Below are positions 8,366 through 11,293 of a stretch of 64,000 nt of DNA, piece by piece. The translations under genes and the position numbers were made by a program. A model generated the notes under the pieces. It ran no database searches and was not told the DNA's origin. It saw nothing but the letters and a program-made list of their open reading frames with translations. The stretch is from the NCBI GenBank assembly GCA_963666275.2, contig CAXXOA010000002.1:1184001-1248000 (forward strand). The letters are read 5' to 3'. The DNA is from Oceanispirochaeta sp. (GTDB lineage: Bacteria; Spirochaetota; Spirochaetia; DSM-2461). Within the stretch, counting starts at the first letter, position 1, and every line of letters begins with the position of its first letter.

Positions 8366-8998
8366 ATGAAAGTGCTGCTTGTGAATGGAAGTCCTCACGA
8401 TAAAGGATCCACCTATACCGCCCTGGAGGAGATATCCCGCACTCTGGGAGAGGAAGGAGTGGACAGTGAAATATTCCAGCTGGGGCTGGATCCCCTTTCG
8501 GGATGCATCGACTGCAAAAAATGCGCCACCCTGGGTAACTGTGTCTTCAACGACAAGGTCAATGAGTTTCTGGAGATGGCTCCCTTTGCAGAGGGTTTTA
8601 TCTTCGGATCCCCTGTCCACTACGGATCCTGCTCGGGATCCATGACCTCCTTCATGGACAGAGTCTTTTTTTCGGATTTCATTTCGGGAACCAATCAGTT
8701 TATCCATAAACCCACTGCCGCCGTTGTCGCCGCCAGAAGGGCCGGAACCACCGCCGCCTTTGATCAGCTGAACAAATATTTTCACCTGGCCCAGATGCCC
8801 GTTGTCACCTCCCAGTACTGGAATATGGTCCACGGTGCCTCATCGCAAGAGGTTGCTGATGATCAGGAAGGCCTTCAGACCATGCGCGTCCTGGCCCGCA
8901 ATATGGCCTGGCTGCTCAAGTGCATCGAAGCGGGAAAACAGAGCGGTGTGGCCAAACCGGCCAGAGAAGAGCGGATCTTTACGAATTTTGTGAGGTGA
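8366..8998 (+). CDS. Iron-sulfur flavoprotein / NADPH-dependent FMN reductase (flavodoxin fold)
   Basis: NGSPH..GST, CIDCKKC.{5}C cluster motif, GSPVHY, RRAGTT. Confidence 0.9.
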   Translation: MKVLLVNGSPHDKGSTYTALEEISRTLGEEGVDSEIFQLGLDPLSGCIDCKKCATLGNCVFNDKVNEFLEMAPFAEGFIFGSPVHYGSCSGSMTSFMDRVFFSDFISGTNQFIHKPTAAVVAARRAGTTAAFDQLNKYFHLAQMPVVTSQYWNMVHGASSQEVADDQEGLQTMRVLARNMAWLLKCIEAGKQSGVAKPAREERIFTNFVR

Positions 8999-9591
8999 AC
9001 CCTCTTCCCCGGCCCCTCTCCCAGAGGGCGAGGGGGGTGTGGTTTTTATCGGGATCCCCCAGAACTCCTCTCCCTCTGGGAGAGGGGAATCAAAGGGGTG
9101 AGGGTTGGAATGGGCTGGCAGGTTAACGTGCAGGACCCACTCAGCTCCTGTTCAAATACTGCTTGATTGTGTTCGAGCTTCCTGGTTATAAACCCTCTCC
9201 CCCGGCCCCTCTCCCAGGGGGCGAGGGGTGTGTGGTTTTTATCGGGATCCCCCAGAACTCCTCTCCTTTTGGGCTGGTCGGAAGCAAGCTTCCTGCTCGC
9301 CTATGCAGCCGTAGGAGAGGGGAATCAAAGGGGTGAGGGTTGGAATGGGCTGGCAGGTTAACGTGCAGGACCCACTCAGCTCCTGTTCAAATACAGCATG
9401 ATTGTGTTCGAGCTTCCTGGTTATAAACCCTCTCCCCCGGCCCCTCTCCCAGGGGGCGAGGGGTGTGTGGTTTTTATCGGGATCCCCCAGAACTCCTCTC
9501 CTTTTGGGCTGGTCGGAAGCAAGCTTCCTGCTCGCCTATGCAGCCATAGGCGAGGGGAATCAAAGGGGTGAGGGTTGGAATGGGCTGGCAG
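8998..9591. repeat. Tandem array of three inverted-doublet palindromic repeat units (8998-9106, 9191-9341, 9426-9576); periods 193 and 235 bp
   Basis: Each unit is AACCCTCTCCCCCGGCCCCTCTCCCAG(A/G)GGGCGAGGGG…CTCCTCTCC…GGAGAGGGGAATCAAAGGGGTGAGGGTT, followed by GGAATGGGCTGGCAG. Confidence 0.95.
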
Positions 9592-9605
9592 ATGAATGTG
9601 TATAG

Positions 9606-10007
9606 TCATAACTCTGTGAGCATATTGATCTGTTGTAAGATCGTTTCCGGGTTGTAGAGAGCTACTTTGTTCGGGTATCTCAGAATTTTAAAACCTTCTG
9701 CTTTCAGAATGTCGTCTCTGACTCGATCCTTGCTCTTTTGTTCTTTAGTCGCATGGTATTCTCCATCAAGTTCTATGATCAGCTGTAATTTATGGCAGTA
9801 AAAATCAACTATATAAGGACCTATTTGGTGTTGTCTTCTGAACTTCAGACTCTTTTGTTTTCCAGCGCGCAGAAATTTCCATATATATTCTTCTGCCTCT
9901 GTTTGTTTGCTTCGTAAGTTCCGTGATGTATCCCGTAAGCCTGAATACTTTAATCCGCCTCGATAATGAAGGGAATTTCTCCCATCCGTATGGTCTTTCA
10001 TATCCAA
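9606..10007 (-). CDS. DUF559 family (Vsr-like, PD-(D/E)xK fold) endonuclease-domain protein
   Basis: R.LR..QTEAE..IW..LR…KFRRQHQIGPYIVDFYC..L.LIIELDGEYH…D..RD..L…GF.ILR..N; visibly more AT-rich than neighbouring genes. Confidence 0.92.
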   Translation of the reverse strand: MDMKDHTDGRNSLHYRGGLKYSGLRDTSRNLRSKQTEAEEYIWKFLRAGKQKSLKFRRQHQIGPYIVDFYCHKLQLIIELDGEYHATKEQKSKDRVRDDILKAEGFKILRYPNKVALYNPETILQQINMLTEL

Positions 10008-10069
10008 ATAAACGTTTGAAAATTAACCTTTGATTCAAAATCTTAAACATTTCTCAAGTCTTTTTATTT

Positions 10070-10321
10070 ACCCTCTCCCCCGGCCCCTCTCCCAGAGGGA
10101 GAGGGGAATCAAAGGGGTGAGGGTTGGAATGGGCTGGCAGGTTAATCGGGGGGGGCTTTTCACTTTGTGATTAGAGAATCAGGATATTTTCAGCGTTATA
10201 TATGCTGGTTATAAACCCTCTCCCCCGGCTCCTATACCTGGGGGCGAGGGGTGTGTGGTTCTCGTAGGGATATCCCGGACTCCTCTCCCTCTGGGAGAGG
10301 GGAATCAAAGGGGTGAGGGTT
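10070..10321. repeat. Two further repeat units on the other side of the DUF559 gene: collapsed unit 10070-10125 and diverged full unit 10214-10321
   Basis: Same ACCCTCTCCCCCGGC… and …GGGAGAGGGGAATCAAAGGGGTGAGGGTT arms as the units at 8998-9576. Confidence 0.93.
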
Positions 10322-10387
10322 GGATTCCCCTGCGAACACCCCCGAAATCCCTTATACTTATACCTGTTCTAATTCTAAGGAGGAATC

Positions 10388-11293
10388 ATGGTTTACAGAA
10401 CTCTGGGAAAAACAGGTCTGGAGGTTTCGGTGATCGGGCTGGGGACCTGGCAGTTCGGCGGTGAGTGGGGGGTGGATTTTACCCAGCCCCAGGTGGATGC
10501 TGTTTTTGATGCCGCCAGGGAAACAGGGATAAACCTGATCGATACGGCCGAATGCTACGGGGATCATCTTTCGGAGAAATTTGTCGGTCAGGCTGTAAAA
10601 AAGGACAGGGACAATTGGATAATCGCCACCAAATTCGGCCATCACTTTGCGGGGCATCTGAAGCGGGAGCAGCTCTGGACGGTCCGGGATGTACAGGCCC
10701 AGCTGGAAGGCTCCCTGAAGAGCCTGGGGGTGGAACAGATCGATATTTATCAGTTCCATTCGGGAAAAAATGAATATTTTGAGAATGATGAGCTGTGGAC
10801 CTGGCTGGATAAGCAGAAGCAGGCGGGCAAAATAGCCCATATCGGAATTTCCATCTCCAACAGCCACGAAGGGGTCATGGAGCCTCAGTCGGCCCGAGCT
10901 GTGGAAGTAGGGGCGGAAATGCTGCAGCTCTACTACAACCGGCTGGACCGCCGGCCCGAAGAGAAGGTTTTTCCCGTCTGCCGGGAGCAGAACCTGGGGG
11001 TTTTTGCCCGGGTACCCCTGGCCAGCGGTTTCCTGAGCGGAAAATATCACAAAGGGGATACCTTCCCGTCCAATGATGTGCGGGGCGCCCAGTCTCAGGA
11101 GGAGATCAATGCTGTTCTGGAACAGGTGGAAGAGATTCGGAAAACCGAAGTTCCCCCCGGTGTTCCCATGGCTGCCTGGGCCCTGGCCTGGTGTCTGAAA
11201 GATCCTGTGGTGACGGCGGTCATTCCGGGCAGCAAGAATCCTGAACAGGTTCGGAAAAATGCAGCCGCAGCGGAACTTGCGGGATCCCTATAG
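10388..11293 (+). CDS. Aldo/keto reductase
   Basis: LGKTGLEVSVIGLGTWQFGG, DTAECYG, IATKFG, IDIYQFH, VIPGSKNPEQV. Confidence 0.95.
   Translation: MVYRTLGKTGLEVSVIGLGTWQFGGEWGVDFTQPQVDAVFDAARETGINLIDTAECYGDHLSEKFVGQAVKKDRDNWIIATKFGHHFAGHLKREQLWTVRDVQAQLEGSLKSLGVEQIDIYQFHSGKNEYFENDELWTWLDKQKQAGKIAHIGISISNSHEGVMEPQSARAVEVGAEMLQLYYNRLDRRPEEKVFPVCREQNLGVFARVPLASGFLSGKYHKGDTFPSNDVRGAQSQEEINAVLEQVEEIRKTEVPPGVPMAAWALAWCLKDPVVTAVIPGSKNPEQVRKNAAAAELAGSL

Follow-up and report, generated by a model that had tools for sequence, protein, structure and literature searches.

What is the block of five palindromic repeat units that encloses a small nuclease gene in an Oceanispirochaeta genome, and has the nuclease anything to do with the repeats? 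The gene encodes a protein of the DUF559 family, and the block lies near the beginning of a 64-kb stretch of DNA (hereafter the window). The genome holding the window is designated G000 (5.27 Mb), comparison genomes are designated G001 to G004 and so on, and L numbers refer to extracted loci; papers are cited by their PMC numbers. The original prediction, made from the letters alone, proposed a selfish or domesticated system run by the nuclease and resembling the doublets (REPINs) of repetitive extragenic palindromic (REP) sequences. We believe, with a probability of about 0.62, that the block is a selfish cassette similar in design to REP sequences and their REP-associated tyrosine transposases (RAYT), in which a Vsr-like nuclease would nick its own repeats and host repair would copy them. 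The evidence comes from the anatomy of the block, its apparent insertion as a discrete unit, the linkage of repeat and gene across phyla, the pairing of repeat subtypes with nuclease clades, lineage-specific gains of gene-less copies, purifying selection on the gene, and the fold and catalytic motif of its product.

The block (8996..10375, 1,380 bp, no strand assigned, ends uncertain by a few bases) appears to be a discrete insertion when it is aligned with the empty site of G004, a genome of the same genus. The neighbours, by their Pfam names, are a flavoprotein (FMN_red) gene and an aldo/keto reductase gene, whose orthologs in G004 encode proteins 82% and 85% identical. In G000 the block lies between the stop codon of the former and the stop/Shine-Dalgarno junction of the latter; at the G004 locus (L034) the ribosome-binding site and ATG come immediately after TAA, and 8996-10375 of the window is extra relative to this junction. 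This gene order occurs in only G004 among four reductase orthologs, and the direction (insertion in G000) is judged from the tight gene coupling there. The discrete insertion and the empty site in a relative had both been anticipated; the right end has to be moved from 10321 to 10375.

Within the block five related units bracket one AT-rich gene with intact catalytic residues, as was first described (starts at 8998, 9191, 9426, about 10069 and 10214; no strand is assigned to the units); the open reading frame (ORF) has a lower GC content (39%) than the window (49%) and the flanking genes (53-56%). The gene (9606..10007, minus strand; YcjD-like, Vsr/EDxHD fold) encodes 131 amino acids (aa) if it starts at ATG 10001 and 133 aa if it starts at TTG 10007. 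The description of each full unit as two inverted copies of one motif holds for unit 1 (8998..9106), a plain inverted doublet of the BoxC/TM_ECO type with its left motif at 9000-9034 (minus), its right motif at about 9067-9104 (plus) and the purine tails directed outward; the remaining units depart from it. Units 2 (9191..9341) and 3 (9426..9576) are doublets that carry the same 42-nt insert, an element of a second repeat family, placed by alignment at 9272..9313 (plus strand) in the loop of the right hairpin of unit 2 and at 9507-9548 in unit 3; a recent tandem duplication of 235 bp, 99% identical (9079..9548, plus strand), is the origin of both units and their spacers. Unit 4 (10069..10125), which lies about 65 nt upstream of the nuclease start, consists of a single perfect hairpin flanked by a pyrimidine tract to its left and a purine tract to its right, and unit 5 (10214..10321) is an older doublet, its left hairpin decayed and its right one intact. 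The unique tail of the insertion (10322..10375, no strand) is missing from the empty site, and the promoter scan found no consensus promoter in it. The promoter and terminator scan gave nothing exceeding shuffles, and an Rfam search of 8900-10450 returned 10 matches, all far below the gathering scores.

Knowledge of BoxC in E. coli goes back to the 1990s. Under the name TM_ECO (earlier BoxC or PIT) it is described as a C-rich 9-mer, a first loop of 3-6 nt, a G-rich 9-mer, a second loop and another G-rich 9-mer, and an intrastrand triplex was demonstrated in vitro for the E. coli motif (PMC4666352); the same motif is named HPG1/HPG2 in PMC5100583. The suggestion that the window motif resembles BoxC proved apt: if loop 2 is permitted to exceed 3 nt, three of the window motifs fit every fixed position of the published consensus and the fourth has one mismatch. 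The strict pattern, with loop 2 of exactly 3 nt, has 0 exact matches in the window, where loop 2 is 5-7 nt long; a few G000 copies outside the window have the 3-nt loop. As a control, the published pattern run on K-12 recovered the 23 copies of the paper. Judging by sequence, we consider the window repeat to be the triplex repeat published as BoxC/PIT/TM_ECO, here in a form whose loop is longer (the ViennaRNA folding of the window units concerns hairpins only, the triplex being outside its model). It resembles the published repeat in being intergenic, dispersed, often arranged in inverted pairs and very uneven in copy number among relatives; it differs in loop 2 (5-7 versus 3 nt), and the subtypes beside other DUF559 clades fall outside the published consensus. 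The motif was said to occur nowhere else in the 64 kb, and indeed none was found in the rest of the window; genome-wide it is dispersed, with about 40 copies in G000 spread over some 30-35 clusters, mostly intergenic, near gene ends and partly in inverted pairs. A search allowing at most three mismatches gave 39 matches in G000 versus 1 in the reversed genome, and nhmmer at E<0.01, with a hidden Markov model trained without both DUF559 loci, gave 44 versus 0.

Does the repeat accompany DUF559 elsewhere? Relatives, the phylum and GTDB together yielded 143 DUF559 rows (116 of the 148 phylum matches covered), to which we applied a generic detector, a C-rich hairpin plus a third tract, which was tuned on the loci of these same rows; L008 (a weak match in a 1,181-aa frame), L012, L013 and L016 (the same places as L006 and L014) and two fragments shorter than 85 aa were left out before counting. 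The detector was positive in 89 of 108 sequence windows adjoining DUF559 versus 6 of 108 distal ones (about 1.1-1.4 kb off). Among 133 loci with both flanks 74 are bracketed and 103 have at least one repeat; the respective numbers for 600 random G000 ORFs are 1 and 37. Since the detector had been tuned on the first loci, it was rerun unchanged on a held-out set of 80 new metagenome loci, where 66/99 adjoining versus 7/99 distal windows were positive, 32/69 loci were bracketed and 53/69 had at least one repeat. The ends of other genes in the same loci were positive in 5 of 72 cases. All detector counts are lower bounds, because variants with a long loop or a short stem are missed, although the eye finds them in most of the 34 "unflanked" rows. 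The enrichment of the motif beside DUF559 genes, for which the original prediction had recommended a check, is thus observed in both sets.

The same linkage is seen within single genomes. Both DUF559 genes of G000 are bracketed (2/2, versus 1/600 random ORFs), and only these genes have doublets on both sides; three other intervals shorter than 2.5 kb consist of single or weak motifs around ordinary genes. None of the 7 Y1_Tnp genes of G000 lies within 90 kb of a motif, and RAYT was rejected as the driver in this genome on that ground. Among 401 phylum genomes, 73 have DUF559 and 22 have the TM_ECO-type pattern, the gene being present in all four genomes with at least 10 copies. In E. coli, TM_ECO no. 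9 lies 168 nt downstream of ycjD, the DUF559 gene near which the original prediction had placed BoxC, and a decayed hairpin overlaps the 3' end of ycjD. Full-text literature searches (titles and abstract starts, with most subscription journals and supplements outside their reach) found no paper linking DUF559/ycjD with BoxC-type repeats. The accessible parts of PMC4666352 and PMC5100583 do not mention ycjD; the former counts 3,610 copies in 262 proteobacterial genomes and, in the same parts, reports neither a function nor a mobility gene found near the motif.

When the flanks are placed along the nuclease tree, they form blocks of distinct repeat subtypes: each nuclease clade comes with its own version of the repeat. 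Across families the repeat similarity declines with protein distance (rho -0.196, permutation p=0.001, 106 loci, four tandem duplicates dropped); the nearest protein from another family has its repeat at the 93rd percentile (median), and for the held-out loci the best protein match predicts the repeat at the 80th percentile (median; n=58). In 63 paralog comparisons, whose pairs are not independent, the repeat resembles that of the nearest protein elsewhere in 53 cases and that of the same-genome paralog in 8, with 2 ties. The genome-wide copies show the same tendency. Among 78 DUF559-positive genomes subtype B occurs in 10/10 with a clade-B gene (7 with 20-108 copies) versus 15/68 others (one with 67 copies, the rest with 1-16), and subtype C in 7/9 genomes of its own clade and the neighbouring rows versus 3/69 others, as single copies; the clade labels of some genomes in these counts are incomplete, because 32 of the 148 phylum DUF559 matches were not fetched. 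A tree of 127 columns supports three groups with 94, 86 and 99; the groups tested were chosen from an earlier tree, and their monophyly is no independent test.

Orthologous sites bear on the age of the copies. The second DUF559 gene of G000, 40% identical to that of the window, has a doublet on either side; the corresponding site carries a single repeat and lacks the gene in G004, and in G001 it lacks both. Four gene-less repeat sites of G000 correspond to plain spacers of 22-119 bp in G001 and G002, both without a DUF559 match and without the pattern. In G004 the repeats are differently built at 2 of 3 readable gene-less sites (partly by eye), and G003 has at L190 the subtype of its own DUF559 clade where G000 has the window subtype (by eye). 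From the plain spacers and differing repeats in this comparison (15 loci, of which 2 had no gene pair and 1 no sequence) it follows that the gene-less copies are lineage-specific gains.

The product of the gene matches PF04480 with E=1.8e-32 (111.9 bits versus a cut-off of 20.6), and its DFY...ELDGEYH motif is intact; D66, E77, D79, G80, H83 and D92 are invariant in 117 homologues, which also share a basic R-R-Q-H stretch, and the catalytic motif is kept in 139 of the 143 rows. The structure model (predicted local distance difference test score, pLDDT, 81) is a single domain of 131 aa with a 17-residue N-terminus of low confidence. Foldseek relates it to 3HRL, which is uncharacterised (E=6e-7; by sequence E=2e-16), to the catalytic domain of I-Bth0305I, a homing endonuclease (E=4.9e-4), and weakly to 1VSR (E=0.058); the I-Bth0305I domain is the closest characterised fold. 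Weaker matches are mitoribosomal proteins, which we take to be RNA-binding RAP domains. The homodimer prediction scored 0.03 and is not used as evidence. The ratio of nonsynonymous to synonymous substitution rates (dN/dS) among homologues has a median of 0.10 and a maximum of 0.20 (44 of 85 pairs with unsaturated dS), i.e., the homologues are under purifying selection. The family is patchy (7 of 41 relatives, besides the 73 of 401 phylum genomes), reaches 7 copies per genome and includes broken and truncated copies.

The mechanism we propose is as follows. The block would be the gene-carrying form of a small selfish element, DUF559 between inverted BoxC-type repeats (a hairpin plus a purine third strand), and the gene-less doublets and singlets throughout the genome would be its non-autonomous copies. 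The nuclease would recognise its own repeat subtype when folded, as single-stranded DNA or as a cruciform, and nick it at or beside the hairpin; the binding and nicking, the folded substrate and the copying route are what we infer. PD-(D/E)xK enzymes hydrolyse DNA and form no covalent intermediate, so any movement would have to proceed via host repair. Repair or replication restart from the nick would then copy the stretch between the repeats, with no covalent transposase intermediate involved, and the copy would land next door, giving tandem arrays as in the window, or in a new gap. A bolder claim, to which we give somewhat less than even odds, is that DUF559 and BoxC-type ends constitute a separate, phylum-spanning class of transposase-free mobile elements, in which a hydrolytic nuclease of 130 residues nicks a folded hairpin/triplex end, moves the gene and the doublets, and has a repeat code for each clade.

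The comparison with REP/RAYT (the REPtron; PMC8266576, PMC3733652) reveals features common to both sides: cognate palindromes clustered around the enzyme gene, doublets without the gene genome-wide, tandem arrays, in-frame copies in genes and a co-variation of enzyme groups with repeat types (for DUF559 possibly caused by joint inheritance). There are also differences. DUF559 is a hydrolase of the Vsr/EDxHD fold (PF04480) and not a HUH Y1 tyrosine transposase, HUH enzymes working via a covalent intermediate (PMC8266576); the window motif has no GTAG/CGTC tag and has a purine third tract (the single GTAG in unit 2 is the end of the 42-nt insert and is missing in unit 3); and tnpA-REP is mostly single-copy with no evidence of mobility, whereas DUF559 occurs at unrelated sites and in several copies. 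The DUF559/BoxC pair is REPtron-like in layout and co-variation, yet it is not a member of REP/RAYT. The original interpretation is partly supported; of the two terms offered with it, "selfish cassette" fits better than "domesticated", since the DUF559 gene, unlike RAYT, is apparently mobile (differing sites, several copies, in-frame insertions).

Nor is the cassette an EDxHD homing gene. It shares with I-Bth0305I the catalytic fold and the E-x-D-G-x-x-H...D residues; the EDxHD motif, as well as nicking and cleavage by I-Bth0305I, which has an extra DNA-binding region, are reported in PMC3239194, and this enzyme is a precedent for the fold driving the spread of its own gene via cutting and host repair (PMC3239194). 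Unlike such homing endonucleases, DUF559 has no N-terminal NUMOD or helix-turn-helix (HTH) region, lies in no intron or intein (no Rfam intron match), is spread over many sites that are unrelated where homing genes have a single conserved one, and has structured repeats at its ends. With Vsr it is grouped in PMC3424549, and the fold match to 1VSR mentioned above is weak; no cytosine methyltransferase adjoins DUF559 of the window, and most flanking hairpins, 142 of 179, have no mismatch. Vsr-style mismatch recognition was rejected as a general rule because most flanking hairpins are perfect. The bias among the mismatches is suggestive at most: 20 of 36 typed ones read G.A or A.G on the strand with the purine tail, and of 39 G000 copies assigned by pattern 13 have G.A at stem position 6 and otherwise at most T.G at position 9.

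Mobility of the cassette is indicated by the places where it is found. In 12 of 15 long fused frames scanned DUF559 lies within HsdR, HsdM or a related methylase (L019-L025, L057, L061, L066, L071, L085); compared with intact HsdR, four frames carry exactly repeat-DUF559-repeat in frame, and the insertions in HsdM are in different loops and have different subtypes. Tandem copies of the gene plus repeat are present in G003 (three), G415, G100 and G380, the first three of these genomes having copies that end in repeats (L006, L123, L134), and G117 has half a DUF559 gene between two repeats at a stop codon. In E. coli K-12 (L155:1241-2028, order fabI-ycjD-sapF) ycjD and its repeat occupy the place of the eefRABCD operon of other E. 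coli lineages, an operon reported as lost at least twice (PMC12817139). As a separate observation, the in-frame cassettes are concentrated in type I restriction-modification genes.

A number of points weigh against the selfish-cassette reading. The binding and cleavage of the repeat by the nuclease are a proposal. Co-variation of gene and ends is to be expected from joint inheritance alone, even if the enzyme never touches the ends, and only the dispersed copies matching the resident clade go beyond it; the clade of the window protein itself has weak support (72 in the Shimodaira-Hasegawa-like approximate likelihood ratio test, SH-aLRT). The suggested correlation between repeat and gene is present, DUF559 being found in 14/22 repeat-positive versus 59/379 repeat-negative phylum genomes (odds ratio 9.5, inflated by kinship), and it is incomplete: the 8 other repeat-positive genomes have no DUF559 match (four were rechecked at E 0.01), and repeats persist in genomes without a matching nuclease. 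G003 and G004 hold the window subtype (43 and 20 blastn matches) and DUF559 genes of other clades; G117 holds 67 subtype-B copies and no clade-B gene among its three DUF559 matches. E. coli chromosomes with ycjD have 23, 25, 26 and 13 copies and those without the ycjD locus 11, 17, 6 and 14, overlapping ranges in a small and kin-structured sample (8 of 10 chromosomes, with the absence of DUF559 established by family search in 2 of the 4 ycjD-less ones). Plasmids (48/72,556 records) and phages (2/50,697) seldom carry DUF559. Finally, the one empty site (G004) shows no evident target-site duplication, which together with a transposase would mark a classical IS or MITE (DDE type), and no conserved target; the junction codons, TGA versus TAA, might be a decayed 3-nt duplication, G000 and G004 are only about 80% identical, and the insert has no transposase. 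Gene loss followed by slow decay of the repeats would explain repeats without a matching gene; so would a mover other than DUF559.

Such a mover is assumed by the best surviving alternative, according to which the repeats spread by a host enzyme, by replication slippage at triplex stalls or by a transposase acting in trans, and DUF559 is cargo captured once in the distant past, perhaps linked to defence or restriction, and co-inherited ever since. The persistence of repeats without the gene agrees with this, as do the 12 of 15 fused frames in type I restriction-modification or related methylase genes, the other small repeat families of G000 that nest in the same loops independently of DUF559, and the blocking of polymerase by BoxC/PIT motifs in vitro (PMC4666352). 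We nevertheless regard it as unlikely: only DUF559 genes are bracketed by doublets on both sides in G000, high copy number accompanies the matching clade, no Y1_Tnp gene is near the repeats in G000, and one and the same cargo would need to have been retained in all subtypes, with purifying selection acting on it.

Less probable still is a regulatory pair serving the host, with the nuclease resolving structures or processing repeat-carrying transcripts, the flanking repeats controlling its expression, and the spread being a by-product. Purifying selection and the weaker fold matches to mitoribosomal proteins would suit such a role. So would the history of ycjD, which has long been resident in E. 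coli phylogroups A, B1 and C (PMC12817139); the ycjD form accounts for 3,375 of 5,426 genomes. The patchy distribution, the unrelated insertion sites, the copies numbering up to 7 per genome, the broken or truncated genes and the in-frame insertions are difficult to reconcile with a host function, and PIT elements are reported to show neither promoter nor terminator activity (PMC4666352). The explanation by chance, that any intergenic gap accumulates repeats and that such gaps come with AT-rich foreign genes, agrees with the position of most G000 copies (intergenic, near gene ends) and is practically negligible in view of the near/distal contrast in the held-out set (66/99 versus 7/99), the 1/600 random ORFs bracketed versus 2/2 DUF559 genes, the 5/72 positive ends of other genes and the different subtypes carried by paralogs in one genome.

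BoxC and DUF559/YcjD have both been unexplained so far, and their pairing makes the nuclease a candidate for what spreads BoxC-type repeats. Should the enzyme act on the repeats, a nuclease that belongs to none of the transposase families would be able to spread repeat families; the odd in-frame DUF559 fusions in HsdR and HsdM would be explained as insertions, and very small nucleases would be at hand as a set whose DNA-structure specificities are matched and differ from one another. E. coli K-12, which has ycjD and 23 copies of BoxC, would then serve as a laboratory model without further preparation.

Other small repeats share the loops of the BoxC-type hairpins. The 42-nt repeat, whose arms are fixed and whose inner hairpin varies, has 25 blastn copies in G000 and sits in such loops; in four G000 genes that resemble group II intron reverse transcriptases (named by eye) it is in frame, adding 14 residues (C1:1038490-1039812, C1:1042840-1044162, C3:188204-189526, C3:191386-192732). 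It is present in 14 of 41 relatives, some with tandem arrays of 42-43 nt, and 8 of these 14 have no DUF559 match at all; because of this independent occurrence it was rejected as a part of the DUF559 system. No transposase-like neighbour that might be its partner enzyme was evident at six loci viewed by eye. A filled/empty pair for the insert (C1:115421 versus C1:104110) lies within a duplicated multi-gene segment of G000 (C1:98568-105200 and C1:109786-116552, pieces 82-99% identical), whose repeat doublet has the insert in one copy of the segment and lacks it in the other. A third short family (core CTTCGRCTYCGCTCAGGG) has 18 copies in G000 and none in the window; it is found in or beside BoxC-type repeats (L169:15-45, L171, L176, L186), once in a hairpin loop in G004, and it may be linked to GIY-YIG genes.

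Next to the nuclease gene of several genomes (L003, L015, L057 and L110), short tandem runs with units of 14-42 nt have grown out of parts of the repeat, which points to slippage or recurrent repair taking place locally at the repeats. Contigs from 4 metagenome sequencing runs contained no joint skipping the cassette; the simplest reading of the joints that did appear is that they come from other copies of the repeat. High-depth metagenome contigs match the window at both 10618-10639 and 11027-11047, in the reductase gene, with a joint that skips 387 nt and has 21-nt support; most likely, this is the reductase gene of another, more abundant organism. At C2:1938658-1939902 of G000 single motifs surround a 1.2-kb stretch, AT-rich in appearance, with a PIN-domain-like ORF (named by eye), possibly a cargo carried between repeats.

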